Assembly: GCA_964347265.1 (NCBI GenBank)
Contig: CAYFXV010000004.1
Coordinates: forward strand, 1-49,808
Length of the DNA stretch: 49,808 nt
Direction: 5' to 3'
From: an uncultured archaeon
GTDB taxonomy: Archaea > Aenigmatarchaeota > Aenigmatarchaeia > Aenigmatarchaeales > Aenigmatarchaeaceae
In this document: piece by piece, positions 2,280-49,333 of the stretch
Layout of the letters: every line of letters starts with the position of its first letter
Numbering within the stretch: position 1 is the first letter of the stretch
Notes under the pieces: generated by a model
Told to the model about the DNA's origin: nothing
The model's database searches: none
The model's input: only the letters and a program-made list of their open reading frames with translations
Translations under genes and position numbers: made by a program

Positions 2280-4115
2280 ATGAAAAAAAGAAGAAAAATT
2301 GAAGAAAAAGATTTGAAATTAAATAAAATATGCGTAGACACATCTGCATTGATTCACGGAAAAGTCACAGATTTAATTAAATCAAAAAAACTAGATAATT
2401 CTGAAATAATAATTCCTGAACTTGTTATAGGCGAATTACAAGCTCAAGCAACTAGAGGAAGAGAAATAGGATTTATGGGTCTAGAGGAAATAAAGAAAAT
2501 AAGAAAATTAAAGGACAAACATAGAATAAATTTGAATTTTCTTGGTGAAAGACCTAGTTATGAAGATATCTTATTAGCAAAATCAGGAAGAATAGATGCA
2601 TTAATACAAGATGTTGCAAGAGAAAATAATGCAGTTCTAGTTACATGCGATCTTTTACAAGGTTTGGTTGCACAAGCTCAGGGAATAAAAGTAAAATATT
2701 TTGAGTCTTATAAGAAAAAGAAAAGAATTAAAATAGAGAATTTTCTTTCTCATGATACTATGTCTATTCATTTGAAAGAGGGAGCTATTCCTTATGCAAA
2801 AAAAGGAAAACCTGGAAAAATAAAATTCATTGCATTAAGAAAAAAACCAATGAAATACGAAGAATTAGAAGCAATAGCTGCAGAAATTCTTGATACAGCA
2901 AGATATGAGGAAGATTCTTTTGTAGAACTAGGATTACACGGAGCAACAGTCGTTCAATTAAAGGAAAAAAGAATTTCAATAGCAAGAAAACCATTTTCAG
3001 ATGGATTAGAAATAACTTTAGTTAGACCAATAGTCAAACTAACTTTGGATGATTACAAACTTTCTAGTAAATTAAAAAATAGATTGTCGGAAAAAGCAGA
3101 AGGAATAATTGTAGCAGGACCTCCAGGGAGTGGAAAATCAACTTTCTCAGCTTCCTTAGCAGAATTTTACTTTAAACAAGGCAAAATTGTTAAAACTTTG
3201 GAACAGCCAAGAGATTTACAAGTTCCACCAGAGATAACTCAGTATGCTCCTTTAAATGGAAGCTTTGTAAAATCAGCCAATATACTTCTCTTGGTAAGAC
3301 CAGATTATACTATATTTGATGATGTAAGAAATCCTAAAGAGTTTGATATATTTTCTGATATGAGACTTGCAGGAATAGGAATGATAGGTGTTGTCCATGC
3401 CACAGATCCTGTTGATGCTGTTCAGAGATTTATAGGAAAAATAGAATTAGGAGTCATACCACATGTTATTGATACTATAATATATATTAAAGATGGAAAA
3501 ATTGAAAGAGTTTATTCTTTAAGCTTAACTGTTAGAGTTCCTATTGGAATGACTGAAGCAGACTTAGCAAGACCAATTGTAGAAGTCAGAGATTTTGAGA
3601 CAAAGAGTTTGAAATATGAAATATATACTTATGGAGAACAAACAACAGTTATCCCTGTTAAAAAAGAGAAAAAATCTGCTATACAGAAATTGGCTTCTGA
3701 TAGAATAAAATCAGAAATAAGAAGATTTGATCCTTCAGCAAAAATAGAATTCTTATCTGAGAATAATGTGATTGTGAAAGTTAACAACAAAATAATACCT
3801 AAATTAATAGGAAAGGATGGAAAAACAATAAAATCAATAGAAGATAAACTTGGAATTTCAATAGAAGTGCAACCTATTGTTGAATCTCTTGGAAAGGAAA
3901 TAAAATTCGATGTCCATGAAACAGGAGCTTATATTGTTTTTACATTTGATAAAAGGATTTCTGGTAAAAATGCAAATATTTATGTTGATGATGAATATAT
4001 GTTTTCTGCAACCATTGGTAGAACAGGACAAATAAAAATTTCTAAAGGTTCAGATTTAGGCAAGTCTTTATTAAGATCAATAACTGGCAGGAAAGGTATT
4101 AAAGTTTTTATATGA
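2280..4115 (+). CDS. PINA ATPase (PIN domain + PilT-like ATPase + KH domain)
   Basis: N-terminal PIN (CVDTSALI, TCD), Walker A GPPGSGKST, LLLVRPDYTIFD, GVVHAT, C-terminal KH LIGKDGKTI. Confidence 0.93.
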   Translation: MKKRRKIEEKDLKLNKICVDTSALIHGKVTDLIKSKKLDNSEIIIPELVIGELQAQATRGREIGFMGLEEIKKIRKLKDKHRINLNFLGERPSYEDILLAKSGRIDALIQDVARENNAVLVTCDLLQGLVAQAQGIKVKYFESYKKKKRIKIENFLSHDTMSIHLKEGAIPYAKKGKPGKIKFIALRKKPMKYEELEAIAAEILDTARYEEDSFVELGLHGATVVQLKEKRISIARKPFSDGLEITLVRPIVKLTLDDYKLSSKLKNRLSEKAEGIIVAGPPGSGKSTFSASLAEFYFKQGKIVKTLEQPRDLQVPPEITQYAPLNGSFVKSANILLLVRPDYTIFDDVRNPKEFDIFSDMRLAGIGMIGVVHATDPVDAVQRFIGKIELGVIPHVIDTIIYIKDGKIERVYSLSLTVRVPIGMTEADLARPIVEVRDFETKSLKYEIYTYGEQTTVIPVKKEKKSAIQKLASDRIKSEIRRFDPSAKIEFLSENNVIVKVNNKIIPKLIGKDGKTIKSIEDKLGISIEVQPIVESLGKEIKFDVHETGAYIVFTFDKRISGKNANIYVDDEYMFSATIGRTGQIKISKGSDLGKSLLRSITGRKGIKVFI

Positions 4116-4581: not shown

Positions 4582-5277
4582 ATGAAAAAAGAAAGAATAG
4601 AAACAGGAATCCCAGGAGTAGACAAATTAATAGGAGGAGGTCTATTGCCTCATTCTTTAACTTTATTAACAGGAACAACAGGAACAGGAAAAACTGTAAT
4701 GTCATCTCAATTCATTTATTTTGGAGTTAAAGAACATGATGCTCCTGGAGTTTACGTCAGTTTTGAAGAACCTGTAGATAATATAAGGAGAGATTGTTTG
4801 GATTTTGGTTGGGATTTTGAACCTTTAGAAAAGAGAAACAAAATTATTTTTGTTAGGTATGATCCTTTTCATGTTGAAGATATTTATGAGTTAATAGAAA
4901 CCAATGTTAAAAAGATAGGAGCAAAAAGAGTTGTTATAGATTCTATATCTGCTTTAGGTTTATATGTAAGAGATATTCCAGACATAAGAAGAATGGTATT
5001 TAACATATCATTGCTTTTAAGAAAATTAGGTTGTACATCAATTTTGATTTCTGAAACTTTGCCAATGCAAAATTCGTTATCAAGATTTGGAGTAGAGGAA
5101 TTTGTGACAGACAATGTTATTGTTTTATATTATACTAAGACAGGTTCTCAATTTTCAAGAGCGCTAACAATATGGAAAATGAGAGGTTCTGAACACTCAA
5201 ATAAGCTTCATCCTTATAGAATATCAAATAAAGGTGTTACAATATATAGTGAAGAAGAAGCATTTTCAAAACTTTAA
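4582..5277 (+). CDS. Single-domain KaiC-like (RAD55/GvpD) RecA-superfamily ATPase
   Basis: TGIPGVD, Walker A GTTGTGKT, YVSFEE, VVIDSI, IWKMRGSEH. Confidence 0.9.
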   Translation: MKKERIETGIPGVDKLIGGGLLPHSLTLLTGTTGTGKTVMSSQFIYFGVKEHDAPGVYVSFEEPVDNIRRDCLDFGWDFEPLEKRNKIIFVRYDPFHVEDIYELIETNVKKIGAKRVVIDSISALGLYVRDIPDIRRMVFNISLLLRKLGCTSILISETLPMQNSLSRFGVEEFVTDNVIVLYYTKTGSQFSRALTIWKMRGSEHSNKLHPYRISNKGVTIYSEEEAFSKL

Positions 5278-5308
5278 AGATATATATAAACTGTTCTAAA
5301 TTTATCTT

Positions 5309-6250
5309 ATGCCTAAAAGGACTAAGAAACACAGAACCAAAAAGCATATCAAGAAAATTAAGAAAGAAAAAGTAAAAGATTATCATTTTTTAAAGGTTCC
5401 AGCAATAAAACTTTTTGGTAGATCAGCAGATAAATATTCTGATTATTTTAATATAATAAAAACATCACTCCATAAGGCCGATGCAAAAATTTTATTTAGA
5501 ACTTATTTATCAATTATGTTCTTTCTCACGTCATTTGTTTTTGTTTTGTCACTCTTCTCTACTTTAGCATTTTCAATACATTTAGGTTTGAATATTTTAC
5601 AAACCATTTTAGGCTTGTTAATTTTACCAACTTTATTTTCTATTGTTACATTTCTTTCATATTATATTTATCCAATATCTTCGGCACAAAGAAGAAAAAA
5701 TGACATAGAATCAAATTTACCTTTTGCATTAAATCATATGTCAGCTATTGCAGGTTCTGGGGTTCCTCCAAGAGTCATGTTTAAAGTTATTTCAAGATTT
5801 AGGGAATATGGAGAAATTTCTAAAGAGGCGAACAAAATAAGAAGAAATGTCGAAGTTTTCGGTATGGATGAAATGACATCCATAAAAGAAGTTGCATCAA
5901 AATCTCCGTCACCACTCTTTAAAGACTTCTTACAAGGAATTCTAACAACAATTCAAACAGGAGGTAATCTTAACAATTTTTTAAAAGAAGAGGCTGAAAA
6001 AGCAATGTTTGATTATAGGATTAGAAGAAATAAGTACGTACAACAATTAACAATTTATGCAGATTTCTATACAGCATTGCTAATTGCAGCTCCTCTCATT
6101 TTCATAATAATGTTGCCTATTTTAAGTATAATGCAAGGAACCTTATTTGGATTTGGAATACATGAATTGATAAATCTTGGTTTAATCTCGCTTACAGTTT
6201 TAAATATAGGATTTTTAATATTCCTTCAATTAACTCAACCTAAAATGTGA
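5309..6250 (+). CDS. Type IV pilus membrane platform protein (T2SSF/TadC/ArlJ-like)
   Basis: IESNLPFALNHMSAIAGSG, YGEISKE, TGGNLNNFL, multiple TM segments. Confidence 0.88.
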   Translation: MPKRTKKHRTKKHIKKIKKEKVKDYHFLKVPAIKLFGRSADKYSDYFNIIKTSLHKADAKILFRTYLSIMFFLTSFVFVLSLFSTLAFSIHLGLNILQTILGLLILPTLFSIVTFLSYYIYPISSAQRRKNDIESNLPFALNHMSAIAGSGVPPRVMFKVISRFREYGEISKEANKIRRNVEVFGMDEMTSIKEVASKSPSPLFKDFLQGILTTIQTGGNLNNFLKEEAEKAMFDYRIRRNKYVQQLTIYADFYTALLIAAPLIFIIMLPILSIMQGTLFGFGIHELINLGLISLTVLNIGFLIFLQLTQPKM

Positions 6251-6254
6251 TTTA

Positions 6255-7061
6255 ATGAAAAAATCAAACCTCTTAATGAAAATAACATTGTTAACTACTC
6301 TAATAGGAATTTCACTTGCTATTTTAAATTTGATTTTGTTATCATCATTCACTTTAAGCGTAGTTTCTATTGTTATTATACCAATAGGTCCTTTTGTTTA
6401 TCAATATAGAAAATACAAAGAAAATAAAGAGATTGAAGAGAGATTTCCAGATTTTTTAAGAGATGTAGCACAAAACATAAGAACAGGAATGACAATACCT
6501 CAAGCAATAAAAGCAACAAAAGGTACTTATTATGGAGCATTAAGTCCTTATGTTGGAAAAATGATTGTTCAAATAGACTGGGGAGTCCCTTTTAATAAGA
6601 TTCTTACAGACTTTGCAAACAACACAACTAAATCTTTGAGAAGAACTGTTTTAACAATAATAGATACTCATAAAGGTGGAGGCGATATCGCCGACATATT
6701 TGATTCTGTTGGTAAAAGTATTATTGAAATTAATAGAATAAATAAAGAACGCTATTCTGTAATTTATAACCAAATGTTAACAGGATACATAATTTTCTTT
6801 GTTTTCATAGGAGTTTTAATTATGATGCAAATATATTTGATTCCAAGCTTACAAACCTTTGCTGCTCCAGAGGTTGGAATCTCAACTTTTGAACAGCTTG
6901 GCGGTTTTTATGCTAATGTTTTCAGGATACTTATAATATTACAAGGATTTTTCTCCGGTTTAGTTATAGGTAAATTATCTGAAGGTAGTACAATATCAGG
7001 CTTAAAGCACTCTATACTTTTAGTTATTATAGGTTCTCTTGCGCTTTGGGCTTTCATATAG
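6255..7061 (+). CDS. Second type IV pilus membrane platform protein (T2SSF/TadC-like)
   Basis: IEERFPDFLRDVAQNIRTGMT, YGALSP, GGDIADIF, QGFFSGLVIGKLSEG. Confidence 0.88.
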   Translation: MKKSNLLMKITLLTTLIGISLAILNLILLSSFTLSVVSIVIIPIGPFVYQYRKYKENKEIEERFPDFLRDVAQNIRTGMTIPQAIKATKGTYYGALSPYVGKMIVQIDWGVPFNKILTDFANNTTKSLRRTVLTIIDTHKGGGDIADIFDSVGKSIIEINRINKERYSVIYNQMLTGYIIFFVFIGVLIMMQIYLIPSLQTFAAPEVGISTFEQLGGFYANVFRILIILQGFFSGLVIGKLSEGSTISGLKHSILLVIIGSLALWAFI

Positions 7062-15039: not shown

Positions 15040-15149
15040 AGCCCCGTAGTGTAGCGGCCAAGCACACAGGGCTTTGGTCATAAGACTAAAGCATTGAGCT
15101 TTGCTATGAAAGAAACCCTGTAACGCAGGTTCGAATCCTGCCGGGGCTA
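15040..15149 (+). tRNA. tRNA-Gln(TTG) with 37-nt intron (15078-15114) at 37/38
   Basis: A1-U72 acceptor AGCCCCG/CGGGGCT; CAGGG/CCCTG stem; BHB helix CTTT/AAAG and outer CATA/TATG. Confidence 0.93.
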
Positions 15150-40003: not shown

Positions 40004-40930
40004 ATGGGTTGGCTAATAAAAAAACATGAAGCATCATTAACACCTTTTGGTTGTTATCCTGGTGCAAGAAGTTTAGAAGAACATATAAAAAATGGAATAA
40101 TAATTTTAGACAAACCTCCAGGACCAACTTCTCATAATGTTGATAAATGGATTAAAGATATATTAGAAGTAAAAAAATGCTCACATGGAGGCACATTAGA
40201 TCCAAGGGTTTCAGGAGTTCTAGTAATAGCATTAGAAAATGCAACAAAATTAATGCCAATTCTCTTATCATCTAAAAAAGAATATATAGGAATAATTAAC
40301 CTTCATGAGGAAGTTGAAAAGAAAAAAATTGAAAAAGCATTCAAAAGTTTTATTGGAAAAATTAAACAAATACCTCCTAAAAAATCTGCTGTTGCTAGAA
40401 AAGAAAGGGAAAGAGAAGTTTATTATTTAGAACTATTAGAACTAAAAGAAAGAAAGATCTTATTTAAAATTGGTTGCGAAGCTGGGTTCTATGTTAGAAG
40501 ATTTGCAGATGATTTAGGAAAGGAACTAGGAACAGGAGCACATTTACAGGAATTGAGAAGAACAAAAAGTGGAAATTTTTTTGAAGGATCTGCAATAACT
40601 TTACAAGATTTAGTTGATGCTAAAGAGGAAAATAGACTAAAAGAAGTTGTACTTCCTATGGAATTAGTTGCTGAAAACATAGGAAAAATAATAGTATCAG
40701 ATAATGCTATAGATAATATTTGTAATGGAGCACCTTTGGCTATTGGGGGAATTGTTAGATTTGAAGACAATATAAAAAAAAGACAATGGGTTGCTTTATT
40801 TTCTTTGAAAGGTGAGTTAATAGCTATTGGAAAAGCTCTAATGAATTCTGAAATGATATTAAATAAGAAAAGAGATTTGGCAGTTAAAACTGATAGGGTT
40901 CTAATGAAAAAAGGAACTTATCCAAAATAA
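40004..40930 (+). CDS. cbf5: H/ACA pseudouridine synthase Cbf5 (TruB family, PUA domain)
   Basis: LDKPPGPTSH, HGGTLDPRVSGVL, AHLQELRRTKSG, PUA domain, KTDRVLM..GTYP. Confidence 0.96.
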   Translation: MGWLIKKHEASLTPFGCYPGARSLEEHIKNGIIILDKPPGPTSHNVDKWIKDILEVKKCSHGGTLDPRVSGVLVIALENATKLMPILLSSKKEYIGIINLHEEVEKKKIEKAFKSFIGKIKQIPPKKSAVARKEREREVYYLELLELKERKILFKIGCEAGFYVRRFADDLGKELGTGAHLQELRRTKSGNFFEGSAITLQDLVDAKEENRLKEVVLPMELVAENIGKIIVSDNAIDNICNGAPLAIGGIVRFEDNIKKRQWVALFSLKGELIAIGKALMNSEMILNKKRDLAVKTDRVLMKKGTYPK

Positions 40931-41018: not shown

Positions 41019-42215
41019 ATGATAGTTATTGAAGATTTACACTCAGTCCCCACTTCTGAACAAAAAGTAGAAGTTGTAGAAAGAAAAGGCATTGGACACC
41101 CAGACACCATTTGTGATTCTTTGATGAATAAAGTTTCTGTAGAGCTTTCAAAATATTATTTAGATAAGTTTGGAATAATACTTCATCATAACATTGATAA
41201 AGGCCTTTTGGTTGCAGGAGAAGCAGAACAAAAATTTGGAGGCGGAAAATTAACAACTCCAATGCTTTTGGTTTTTGGAGATAGAGCTACTTATGAATTC
41301 GAGGGACAATTAATTCCTGTTACAGAAATTGCTGTTGACAGTGCAAAAAAATGGTTTAAAGAAAATTTCAGATTTGTTAATCCTGAAAACGATGTGAATT
41401 ATCAAGTTGAATTAAAAAGAGGTTCCGCTGCTCTTAGAGACATATTTTTTAGGAAAGGAGAACTTTTAGGAGCAAATGATACATCCGCAGCAGTTGGTTA
41501 TGCTCCTTTAACAGAAATTGAAAAAATAATTTTGAGTACTGAAAAATTTTTAAATAGTAAAAGTTTTAAGAAAAGATTTCCTGAATCAGGAGAAGATATT
41601 AAAATTATGGGTTTGAGAACCAATGGAGAAATACATTTGACAGTTGCAATGCCGTCAGTAGATAGATTTGTTGAAAGTGAGAACGATTATTTTAGAAAAA
41701 AAGAAAAATTTATTGAGGAAATTAAAGATTTTGTTGCTAAAAAAACTGATTTCAAAACCTTTGTTTTTCTAAACACTTTAGATGCTAAAGGTAGAGGAAT
41801 TGATGGTTGTTATTTAACAGTTACTGGAACTTGTGCAGAGGATGCAGATTGTGGACAAGTTGGCAGAGGCAACAGAGTTAACGGTTTAATACCCTTGAAC
41901 AGACCTGTTAGTAATGAAGCAGCTGCTGGTAAAAACCCAGTTAGTCATGTTGGAAAAGTATACAATCTTTTAAGTCATAAAATTGCTAACGAAATCTATG
42001 AAAATGTTAGTGGTATAAAAGAAATTTACGTTTGGCTTTTAAGTCAAATTGGAATGCCTATTGATAAGCCGAAAATTGCTGCTGCACAAGTGATAATGAA
42101 TTCTGGTTCAGTTGATGACGTAAGAAAAGAGGTTAATGAAGTTATTCAGAAAGAATTCTCAAATATTAAACAGTTCTGTTTAGATTTAGCTCATGGAAAA
42201 TATGAAATTTGTTAA
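41019..42215 (+). CDS. mat: S-adenosylmethionine synthetase, archaeal type
   Basis: VERKGIGHPDTICD, LHHNIDK, ANDTS, GEDIKIMG, GRGNRVNGLI, GKNPVSHVGKVYN. Confidence 0.96.
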   Translation: MIVIEDLHSVPTSEQKVEVVERKGIGHPDTICDSLMNKVSVELSKYYLDKFGIILHHNIDKGLLVAGEAEQKFGGGKLTTPMLLVFGDRATYEFEGQLIPVTEIAVDSAKKWFKENFRFVNPENDVNYQVELKRGSAALRDIFFRKGELLGANDTSAAVGYAPLTEIEKIILSTEKFLNSKSFKKRFPESGEDIKIMGLRTNGEIHLTVAMPSVDRFVESENDYFRKKEKFIEEIKDFVAKKTDFKTFVFLNTLDAKGRGIDGCYLTVTGTCAEDADCGQVGRGNRVNGLIPLNRPVSNEAAAGKNPVSHVGKVYNLLSHKIANEIYENVSGIKEIYVWLLSQIGMPIDKPKIAAAQVIMNSGSVDDVRKEVNEVIQKEFSNIKQFCLDLAHGKYEIC

Positions 42216-45504: not shown

Positions 45505-45695
45505 GCCGTCGTGGCAGAACCAGGTAAATGCGCCAGAATCGTCTCAAGTTTTGATTTTGAGATGATAGCGATACTTGAGACAGATGATATTATGGCTTGA
45601 CTCTGAAATGCGGCGTAATGAAGAGTAAAAAGTAAAGTGATGTCGAGTTATCTGGTGCCCGAAAGGGCTTGCAGGTTCAAATCCTGCCGACGGCG
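45505..45695 (+). tRNA. tRNA-Ser(TGA) with two introns: 45537-45572 (30/31, 36 nt) and 45580-45649 (37/38, 70 nt)
   Basis: GCCGTCG/CGACGGC acceptor, G73, long variable arm GCCC-GAAA-GGGC; removing both introns restores CCAGA-CT-TGA-GA-TCTGG. Confidence 0.85.
45580..45649 (+). ncRNA. Putative box C/D guide sRNA encoded in tRNA-Ser intron 2
   Basis: ACA/TGT terminal stem; C ATGATAT 45584-90; 12 nt; D' CTGA 45603-06; C' ATGAAGA 45618-24; 12 nt; D GTGA 45637-40. Confidence 0.7.
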
Positions 45696-45728
45696 CTTCT
45701 TTTTAAGTGGGAAATCAAATAAAATTAT

Positions 45729-48382: not shown

Positions 48383-49165
48383 TTGAAAATCCAAATATTA
48401 GAAAAAACTGACACTGAAATAAAATTTTTACTAGAGGATTCTAATTTTCAATTCGCAAATACTTTAAGAAGAATAATGATGTCTGAAATACCTATTTTAG
48501 CTATAACTTATGTTGATTTTTCTCTAAATAATTCTGTCCTTTACAATGAAATAATAGCTCATAGATTAGGTTTAATACCATTAGTTTTTAATCCAAAAGA
48601 CTTTCACTTCAAAGAAGAGCATGAAAAAGGAAAAACTTGTTCTATGTGCGAGGTCGTTTTCGCAATAAACAAAAAAGGTCCTGGAATGATATACTCTAAG
48701 GATATGAAATCAAGCAACCCAGAAGTAAAACCCATGTATGATAATATTCCAATTGTAGAACTTTTTGATGATCAAAGATTAAAATTGGAGGCTTCTGCTT
48801 CTTTAGGTTTAGGACTAAAACATGCTAGATATCAGGCAGCAAATGCTTTTTACAGATTTTATCCTTCAGTTAAGATTAGTGGAAAAATAAATAATATAGA
48901 TGAGGTTATTAAATCATGCCCAAAAAATGCTTTTAAATTTGAAAATAATAAGTTTTCTGTTAGTTTAGATTGTGATTTATGTAAAGAATGTTTAAAAGTT
49001 GCTAGACCCAAAGGAAGTTTAGAAATTATTGGAGATAATACAAAGTTTATATTTAATATTGAGTCAATTTCTGGATTAAAACCAGAAGACATTGTTTTGA
49101 GCGCTGTTGATATACTTAAAGAGAAGGTTAAAGACCTTAATAAACAAGTAAAGAAGATTAAATAA
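48383..49165 (+). CDS. rpoD: RNA polymerase subunit D (Rpo3)
   Basis: FANTLRRIMMSEIP, EIIAHRLGLIPL, HARYQ, Cys cluster CDLCKEC, IESISGL. Confidence 0.96.
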   Translation: MKIQILEKTDTEIKFLLEDSNFQFANTLRRIMMSEIPILAITYVDFSLNNSVLYNEIIAHRLGLIPLVFNPKDFHFKEEHEKGKTCSMCEVVFAINKKGPGMIYSKDMKSSNPEVKPMYDNIPIVELFDDQRLKLEASASLGLGLKHARYQAANAFYRFYPSVKISGKINNIDEVIKSCPKNAFKFENNKFSVSLDCDLCKECLKVARPKGSLEIIGDNTKFIFNIESISGLKPEDIVLSAVDILKEKVKDLNKQVKKIK

Positions 49166-49200: not shown

Positions 49201-49333
49201 GCGGAGGTAGCCAAGTCTGGTCTAAGGCGCAGGACTTAAGATCGGACTCTTAAGTTTTGATGCAAGTAAATCTTGCTATGATAAGAAATCCTGTGGGTTA
49301 GTCCCTTCGTCGGTTCAAATCCGGCCCTCCGCA
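49201..49333 (+). tRNA. tRNA-Leu(TAA) with 47-nt intron (49241-49287) at 37/38
   Basis: GCGGAGG/CCTCCGC acceptor, A73, long variable arm, CAGGA/TCCTG stem, BHB helix CTTA/TAAG. Confidence 0.93.

Follow-up and report, generated by a model that had tools for sequence, protein, structure and literature searches.

The window analysed here, a stretch of archaeal DNA taken at its full length of 49,808 nucleotides, carries at its tRNA-Leu(UAA) gene a small intron that contains a sequence antisense to the anticodon loop of its own host, followed by two short boxes and a hairpin that are predicted to form a kink-turn (K-turn) of the box C/D type. We describe this intron and its relatives and consider it a probable guide for 2′-O-methylation of the wobble nucleotide 34. 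The Rfam tRNA model spans 49201–49333 with a 50-nucleotide insertion past the anticodon, and ARAGORN run in default mode on the window did not detect the gene. Directly upstream lies the gene for RpoD (48383–49165). Its nearest relatives, 73–86% identical, come from metagenome-assembled genomes of Candidatus Aenigmatarchaeota, and the window is therefore that of a DPANN archaeon of this phylum.

The initial annotation of this intron had described a nine-base-pair anti-anticodon guide mounted on a near-perfect K-turn, and all of its bases and coordinates proved correct when rechecked against the sequence. The pairing of UCUUAAGUU (49248–56) with GACUUAAGA (49233–41) is present as described and consists of eight Watson-Crick pairs and one G49233·U49256 wobble. 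In the window this pairing reaches beyond a central 7-mer to U49248 and U49256, but only the seven central base pairs are conserved across orthologues. Guide positions are numbered k1 to k8 upstream from the D′-like UUGA box; A49252, the fifth base, pairs with U49237, which is U34, just as had been claimed. The box itself stands at the expected place and at a fixed spacing, with only its GA conserved. Downstream of the hairpin, G49280 and A49281 of the C′-like box are predicted to form tandem G·A pairs with A49260 and G49259, with U49282 opposite U49258 and A49283 paired with U49257. The GA/GA pattern of this K-turn is conserved in orthologous introns; the window copy has an extra U49261. Coordinates of these and related elements are collected in Table 1.

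Table 1 Elements of the intron-containing tRNA-Leu(UAA), tRNA-Gln(UUG) and tRNA-Ser(UGA) genes of the window (BHB, bulge-helix-bulge; MFE, minimum free energy)
Feature	Position	Strand	Basis or remark
tRNA-Leu(UAA) exon 1	49201–49240	+	Rfam tRNA, 46.5 bits; ends at G37
tRNA-Leu(UAA) anticodon arm	stem 5′ strand 49230–34; loop C32–G37 49235–40; U34 49237	+	
tRNA-Leu(UAA) intron, 47 nt, canonical position 37/38	49241–49287	+	Rfam alignment, sequence, BHB read by hand
Guide CUUAAGU (k8 to k2), complement of A31–G37	49249–49255	+	little or no variation in 25 orthologous introns
D′-like box UUGA, non-bulged K-turn strand (G49259, A49260)	49257–49260	+	NNGA at fixed spacing in all module introns
Extra U49261 and K-turn C-helix hairpin GCAAG-UAAAU-CUUGC (predicted arms 49262–66 and 49272–76)	49261–49276	+	MFE fold; compensating stems in orthologues
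3-nt bulge UAU (49277–79) and C′-like box AUGAUAA (49278–84)	49277–49284	+	bulge always N(A/G)U, GA invariant across module introns
BHB 3′ strand UAAG (pairs with C32–A35) and 3′ bulge with 3′ splice site	49282–49288	+	overlaps C′-like box
tRNA-Leu(UAA) exon 2	49288–49333	+	starts at A38 (49288); Rfam tRNA
tRNA-Gln(UUG) with module in a 37-nt intron (15078–15114)	15040–15149	+	same module as in tRNA-Leu(UAA)
Gln guide CUAAAGC (A15089 faces U34); k1 A15093; D′ UUGA	15086–92; 15093; 15094–97	+	
Gln K-turn: hairpin GC-UUU-GC, bulge UAU, GA	15098–104; 15105–07; 15108–09	+	
Gln BHB strand AAAG	15109–12	+	A15109 common to GA and BHB strand
tRNA-Ser(UGA) with two introns: 45538–73 (position 31/32) and 45580–649	45505–45696	+	ARAGORN intron option and T-arm scan
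Ser intron 1: guide CUCAAGU (A45546 faces U34), D′ UUGA, loop UUUUGA, bulge GAU, GA	guide 45543–49; D′ 45551–54; GA 45564–65		
Ser intron 2, candidate complete bipartite C/D RNA	45580–45649	+	box pattern C-13 nt-D′-loop-C′-12 nt-D

The module in orthologous introns and other tRNAs

Genome-wide scans for a motif of NNGA, a hairpin or loop and NNUGA with a nearby 7-bp complement were rejected both as a statistic and as a discovery tool, since they match by the thousand in AT-rich DNA, and orthologues were for this reason retrieved from exon sequence only. A pattern of exon sequence flanking a gap of 25–55 nucleotides, which uses no intron content and so avoids ascertainment bias, was run against 185,579 genomes and returned 119 DPANN tRNA-Leu(UAA) genes with introns, falling into two intron classes. 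About 26 of the 119 carry a common module made up of (C/U/A)UUAAGU, one variable nucleotide, NNGA, a hairpin or short loop, an N(A/G)U bulge and GA. Eleven introns of this class are labelled Aenigmatarchaeota and most of the remainder are unlabelled; the introns lacking the module are mostly labelled Woesearchaeota, Pacearchaeota or Nanoarchaeota. The same intron design recurs in nine relatives at loci syntenic with RpoD.

Within the module class, the 5′ segment (2–11 nt), the loop, the stem sequence and the total length (34–54 nt) all vary, and at least 13 different compensating stem sequences occur, several of them closed by UUCG or GAAA loops. What stays constant is the antisense stretch and how far it lies from NNGA, together with the two GA dinucleotides and the length of the bulge. 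The K-turn pattern NNGA-hairpin-N(R)U-GA is present in 23 of 25 Leu introns and in all 15 of the Gln introns described below, with both GA dinucleotides invariant and a bulge that always ends in U. The D′-like box is UUGA in most introns and otherwise CUGA, UCGA, AUGA, CAGA or AAGA, the canonical CUGA being found in four (L004, L005, L034 and L204; L numbers denote retrieved loci), and the C′ consensus is (R)AUGA(U/A/G)(A/G)A. D′ position 2 and C′ position 5, the 3b·3n pair of the K-turn, are mostly U·U as in C/D K-turns, with C-G, A-U, U-A and U·G as variants.

The sequence CUUAAG is palindromic, and complementarity alone could equally mean that the anticodon loop had simply been duplicated. 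The intron as a direct repeat was rejected: AAG is invariably followed by a U that pairs with A31, and in a copy an A would stand there.

Orthologous tRNA-Leu(UAA) genes may hold as many as four introns, which interrupt the D-loop, positions 31/32 (this intron ending in ...GCGAUA or GCGAAA) and 37/38, and the T-arm (examples are L001:3251-3428, L002:3819-3994, L004, L005, L006 and L007). ARAGORN run with introns mis-assigns the anticodons of such multi-intron tRNAs, which were parsed by hand. Many of the module-free introns from Woesearchaeota and Pacearchaeota have in common a GGACAC motif and, after it, a hairpin with GAGAU at the end of its 3′ arm, and the GGAC of this motif also copies anticodon-arm nucleotides 29–32 (for instance in L101, L122, L073, L077 and L083, from the set L013–L130). 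Many contigs titled "uncultured Methanosarcinales archaeon" (L018, L025, L030, L120 and others) carry DPANN-type intron-containing tRNA-Leu genes, and these labels look unreliable.

The module is also found outside tRNA-Leu. In the window itself, the tRNA-Gln(UUG) intron and the first intron of tRNA-Ser(UGA), a gene that neither ARAGORN in default mode nor Rfam at the gathering score detects, contain it (Table 1); all three U34 tRNAs of the window thus have the module, and the two non-U34 tRNAs, Arg-CCU and Ser-GGA, are intron-free. A second exon-only scan, with the 5′ half of tRNA-Gln, recovered 14 more UUG isoacceptors with the module and with hairpins that all differ, giving 15 different compensating stem sequences among Gln module introns, while the tRNA-Gln(CUG) isoacceptors recovered from the same group (L134, L185, L216 and L248) have no 37/38 intron. 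The Ser(UGA) module occurs in the window, L002 and L090, and one relative, L086, provides the only tRNA-Met(CAU) case (UAUGAGC-U-AUGA-CGAAAG-GAU-GA). In all four hosts, Leu, Gln, Ser and Met, the antisense stretch matches the anticodon of the tRNA in which it resides. The reading proposed in the initial annotation is supported by these data in every part that could be tested by computation, and the module generalises to tRNAs that it had not considered.

In the window, the introns of tRNA-Leu and tRNA-Gln have common ends (GCUAUGA(U)AAGAA) and a common architecture, which suggests common descent, and it is conceivable that the antisense stretch is a by-product of a mobile intron family, kept for insertion or for alternative splicing registers, with the K-turn as part of the mobile unit. 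Relatives with up to four introns per tRNA would suit such a family, and mobility, as well as residence in tRNA introns, has been proposed for C/D small RNAs (sRNAs) (PMC3491384). Splicing has no need of a second antisense stretch, however, as the bulge-helix-bulge (BHB) fold has its own covarying antisense strand at the 3′ end of the intron; moreover, purifying selection acts on guide, spacing and K-turn while other intron positions diverge. We regard a by-product of mobility as quite improbable, and a guide function of the antisense stretch as the better account of its conservation.

Further tRNA genes were encountered beside those with the module. Certain tRNA-Leu genes have the 7-nucleotide loop CUAAGGA, which gives the anticodon AAG with an A34 that is unusual for Archaea (L009:910-994 (-), L222:2677-2816, L141:6521-6626 (-), L186:4145-4250 and L202:4890-5004). 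The 37/38 intron of the gene in L222 has a K-turn, AAGA-GAGG CUUGU CCUC-UAU-GA, whose N+5 position would face C32 rather than 34, a single case that could be due to chance. A Woesearchaeota tRNA-Thr(UGU) (L097:7016-7179 (-)) has an 85-nucleotide intron with a good K-turn, AUGA-GGCUU U AAGCC-GAU-GA, and the 7-mer upstream of it complements D-arm nucleotides 10–16, not the anticodon.

Register, covariation and overlap with the splicing fold

When the guide is anchored on the K-turn, the register that places k5 opposite nucleotide 34 is the best one in 44 of 44 modules from four tRNA families, the Met case having been placed by hand. Positions k2–k8 pair with nucleotides 31–37 and k1 is free. Shuffled guides reach six or more of the seven pairs at this register in 2.2% of trials. 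Guide and target change together. In tRNAs with U33, k4 is A (9/9), and in those with C33 it is G (5/6); position 31 and k2 form G-C, G·U, U-A, C-G and A-U pairs in different genes. The C33 compensation extends to the BHB strand, which changes from AAAG to GAGG. The C33 tRNAs themselves form a tRNA-Gln clade in which a C stands at a position where U is almost universal (UUG in L009:2380-2500, L141, L142, L161, L186 and L202; CUG in L134 and L248).

In a trimmed alignment, 90% of cells are paired as against 68% in shuffles (0/500 reach it), the C-helix stem is likewise paired in 90% of its cells with many compensatory changes, and the covariation score is 0.61 as against 0.20 in shuffles (0/500) and 0.04–0.15 with the partners slid, figures to be read in the light of an alignment of 40 columns that was built and trimmed by hand, of a GA chosen with the pairing score in the Gln set, and of the relatedness of the sequences. 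Taken by itself, the Leu intron folds no better than shuffled sequence (z = -0.9), and a loose motif of GA...UGA with a 7-bp complement is common, with 4878 and 5545 matches in about 1–1.8 Mb. A chance resemblance in AT-rich sequence, aided by the palindromic CUUAAG loop and devoid of function, would account for both observations. It does not explain why, across some 40 divergent introns, stems are compensated, guide and target covary and the register holds, the non-palindromic anticodons of Gln, Ser and Met included, and we give it hardly any weight. By these sequence comparisons the combined pattern is not a product of chance: guide, spacing, NNGA and UGA are kept over about 40 divergent introns while the rest varies.

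The K-turn overlaps the fold required for splicing, a relationship absent from the initial annotation and added here. In the hBHBh′ structure read by hand, the H helix consists of C32-G49285, U33-A49284, U34-A49283 and A35-U49282, the bulges are A36 G37 A49241 and A49286 A49287 A49288, and the h′ helix is formed by U49242-A49281, C49243-G49280 and G49244·U49279. Both the Leu and the Gln intron of the window score 4/4 in H and 3/3 in h′, and most orthologues have 3–4 of the 4 H pairs, with zero gap between the GA of C′ and the BHB H strand. For the Leu and the Gln intron of the window this means that the C′-like box is used twice: its GA and the bases after it are also the h′ and H strands of the BHB. 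The guide/K-turn fold and the splicing fold are therefore mutually exclusive. The most stable predicted fold is the anticodon-guide helix and not the BHB.

Competition of K-turn and BHB for identical bases, together with a predicted fold that favours the anticodon-guide helix, might also be expected if the module were a switch dependent on L7Ae, or a mask of the anticodon, that times or licenses BHB formation and splicing, or shields the unspliced loop, and leads to no methylation. One K-turn suffices for L7Ae but is atypical for a methylation guide (PMC1635284), which also speaks for this explanation. Yet masking requires neither a helix that begins one nucleotide from the box nor a k5 that faces nucleotide 34 in four tRNA families, and the U·U at 3b·3n, the RUGAU-like C′ box and the occasional CUGA are superfluous for L7Ae binding alone. 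The host tRNAs, moreover, match known or predicted targets of wobble methylation (PMC7994747, PMC7668247). A switch or mask with no methylation is in our estimation unlikely, though less so than the other alternatives considered here.

A candidate guide for wobble methylation

We propose, with a probability of roughly 70%, that the intron is a box C′/D′-type guide with a single K-turn that directs 2′-O-methylation of the wobble nucleotide 34 and whose K-turn alternates with the BHB. L7Ae would bind the K-turn of the intron and Nop5-fibrillarin would dock on it, whereupon fibrillarin would 2′-O-methylate U34 (C34 in tRNA-Met). The intron might act in cis, as part of the precursor to be methylated, or it might serve another molecule in trans, either from within its own precursor or after excision and possible circularisation. 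The precursor would then be a two-state molecule, methylated first and spliced once the ribonucleoprotein (RNP) has left. The presence of one K-turn instead of two might be offset by the tethering of the substrate, or by two introns assembling on one Nop5 dimer.

The nearest precedents are the guide in the tRNA-Trp intron and an uncharacterised tRNA-Met intron of Nanoarchaeum equitans. In pre-tRNA-Trp(CCA) (Haloferax, and Pyrococcus sR50), the guide also lies in the 37/38 BHB intron of its own target tRNA, nucleotide 34 is also targeted by the N+5 rule, and guide and splicing folds are also alternatives (Clouet d'Orval 2001 and Singh 2004, as reviewed in PMC4090602, PMC11408192 and PMC7994747). 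The Leu intron likewise has, within a BHB intron, a predicted guide complementary to its host's own anticodon loop, antisense element 5′ of D′ and fifth nucleotide on the target, albeit with a short duplex of which 7 bp are conserved. The tRNA-Trp intron, about 65–105 nucleotides long, has all four boxes of a bipartite C/D RNA (C, D′, C′, D) and two guides, for C34 and U39. In contrast, the module is one hairpin-capped K-turn with one guide in 34–54 nucleotides, and it resides in tRNA-Leu(UAA), Gln(UUG), Ser(UGA) and Met(CAU) of DPANN archaea. For the reviews of 2014 and 2024, tRNA-Trp is the sole example of a host with an intron-borne guide, and the former calls it unique (PMC4090602, PMC11408192), and full-text literature searches found no paper on this module or on intron-borne guides in tRNA-Leu, Gln or Ser. 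The intron-borne wobble guide as such is thus known from tRNA-Trp; the minimal single-K-turn form, the host tRNAs and the lineage of the candidates described here are new.

The expected substrates and product also have precedents. Bacterial TrmL and eukaryotic Trm7/FTSJ1 are protein-only methyltransferases that form 2′-O-methylated nucleotide 34 (Nm34). The predicted product here, Nm34 on tRNA-Leu(UAA) among others, would be the same as theirs, though they use no guide RNA and their mechanism is unrelated; FTSJ1 is mentioned in PMC11408192. That this product is biologically expected, as the initial annotation had held, is plausible in Archaea as well: Pyrococcus has C/D sRNAs whose predicted targets are the wobble bases of tRNA-Leu(UAA), Leu(CAA), Met and Trp (PMC7994747), and in Sulfolobus tRNA-Gln(UUG) a 2′-O-methylated U34 has been observed and a C/D guide predicted (PMC7668247). 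These trans-acting guides act on Leu(UAA), Gln(UUG) and Met, at nucleotide 34 and by the N+5 rule, as the module would. They are separate genes, bipartite and with spacers of about 12 nucleotides, whereas the module sits in the intron of its own substrate with a single K-turn. In Nanoarchaeum equitans, also a DPANN archaeon, a 66-nucleotide stable intron of elongator tRNA-Met, a non-Trp host as in L086, has one variant box C, one box D and a stable hairpin, and a C/D role has only been suggested (Randau 2012, PMC3491384). That report tested no target and gave no comparative or covariation evidence for the intron (PMC3491384), and we liken the two by description.

Engineered half-mer C/D RNPs are known from crystal structures, and Haloferax sR-tMet is a further trans-acting C/D sRNA for the wobble position. 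The engineered hemi C/D RNPs of Hardin and Batey (2006) resemble the module in having one K-turn, one guide and an N+5 target (PMC1635284). These are artificial, needed high salt and lost site specificity (PMC1635284). No single-motif methylation guide has been established in nature.

Several observations weigh against a methylation guide. One concerns architecture: natural archaeal C/D RNAs are bipartite and hemi-RNPs are weakly active in vitro with loss of site specificity (PMC1635284), and neither the Leu nor the Gln intron has the C/D plus C′/D′ arrangement with guides of about 12 nucleotides, each having one K-turn only. A second box pair was sought by inspection in the 47-nucleotide Leu intron, its flanking exons and its circularised form, and none was found, nor did inspection reveal one in the Gln intron of the window. 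The Leu intron accordingly lacks one defining feature of C/D sRNAs and may still work as one. The conserved duplex of about 7 bp is short, and position 31 must leave the anticodon stem in order to pair. GA is the sole conserved part of the D′ box, and the K-turn of the window Leu intron carries one additional pyrimidine, U49261, opposite U49277 and between the D′-like GA and the stem. Common descent of one intron family could in part be the source of the fixed spacing. Some U34 tRNAs of these lineages lack the module (tRNA-Ser(UGA) of L080 and L094, tRNA-Ile(UAU) of L086). A search for RNA runs containing the Leu locus found none.

The proteins of the proposed RNP present a further difficulty. 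Fibrillarin is found in more than 90% of archaeal taxa (PMC8481954), and fibrillarin and Nop5 belong to an archaeal single-copy marker set (PMC9258230). Neither protein labelled Aenigmatarchaeota was present among the matches listed from a protein search, a genome scan for the DVAQP motif and a DPANN-profile search. Both were recovered in other DPANN archaea, fibrillarin in Nanohaloarchaeota, Micrarchaeia and Nanopusillus contigs and, in the protein search, in entries labelled Parvarchaeota. A tblastn search with human and Methanocaldococcus jannaschii fibrillarin found none in the window or in 1.8 Mb of retrieved loci.

A wider form of the proposal, which we advance tentatively and would not rate as high as even, is that Aenigmatarchaeota and some of their DPANN neighbours possess a natural half-mer C/D guide acting on its own precursor, that the switch forces methylation to precede splicing, and that the module has spread among wobble-sensitive tRNAs (Leu-UAA, Gln-UUG, Ser-UGA and Met-CAU) by the retuning of seven nucleotides.

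The role of tRNA introns is an old question, to which Archaea have so far yielded one established answer, the tRNA-Trp intron guiding methylation of its own host. The present introns appear to be a stripped-down version of the same logic, in a little-known phylum of DPANN archaea and in four or more tRNAs besides tRNA-Trp; the comparative support is as good as sequence alone allows. If the proposal is right, it would supply a reason for the retention of these introns in very small genomes and a simple built-in checkpoint that links modification to splicing. It would also constitute a natural single-K-turn C/D guide, and hence an exception to the bipartite rule of C/D RNPs, and the signature of antisense 7-mer, N, NNGA, hairpin, NRU and GA could be used in annotation to predict wobble Nm34 in uncultivated archaea.

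Other C/D-like RNA and neighbouring genes

The second intron of the window tRNA-Ser(UGA) has the appearance of a complete bipartite C/D RNA. A terminal stem GACA/UGUC encloses a box C (GAUGAUA), a 13-nucleotide guide UUAUGGCUUGACU, a D′ box (CUGA), a C′ box (AUGAAGA), a 12-nucleotide guide GUAAAAAGUAAA and a D box (GUGA), and this bipartite arrangement is kept in two relatives, L002 and L004. The first guide matches the anticodon loop (CUUGA) in sense and complements the BHB strand of its own intron. When targets for both guides were sought, in a search that did not include ribosomal RNA sequence, only self-matches were obtained. Rfam gave weak matches at the tRNA-Ser(UGA) introns, C/D-box families among them (E about 3), and no C/D family was significant on either intron examined. 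The arrangement of boxes in this candidate suggests that C/D machinery is in use in the lineage. A regular-expression search of the window for standalone canonical C/D sRNAs gave a single match inside a coding region, probably by chance.

Among the other genes of the window are a ribosomal-protein cluster and genes for HisRS and ThrRS, as well as Cbf5, the H/ACA pseudouridine synthase with TruB_N, PUA and DKCLD domains, which adjoins the S-adenosylmethionine synthetase (40004–40930 (+) and 41019–42215 (+)). RNA-guided modification machinery is thus encoded at least in part in the window. At 2280–4115 (+) and 4582–7061 (+), a fusion of a PIN domain with a T2SSE-type ATPase precedes a KaiC-like ATPase and two membrane proteins of the T2SSF family, which by gene content looks like an assembly cluster of the archaeal pilus or archaellum type.

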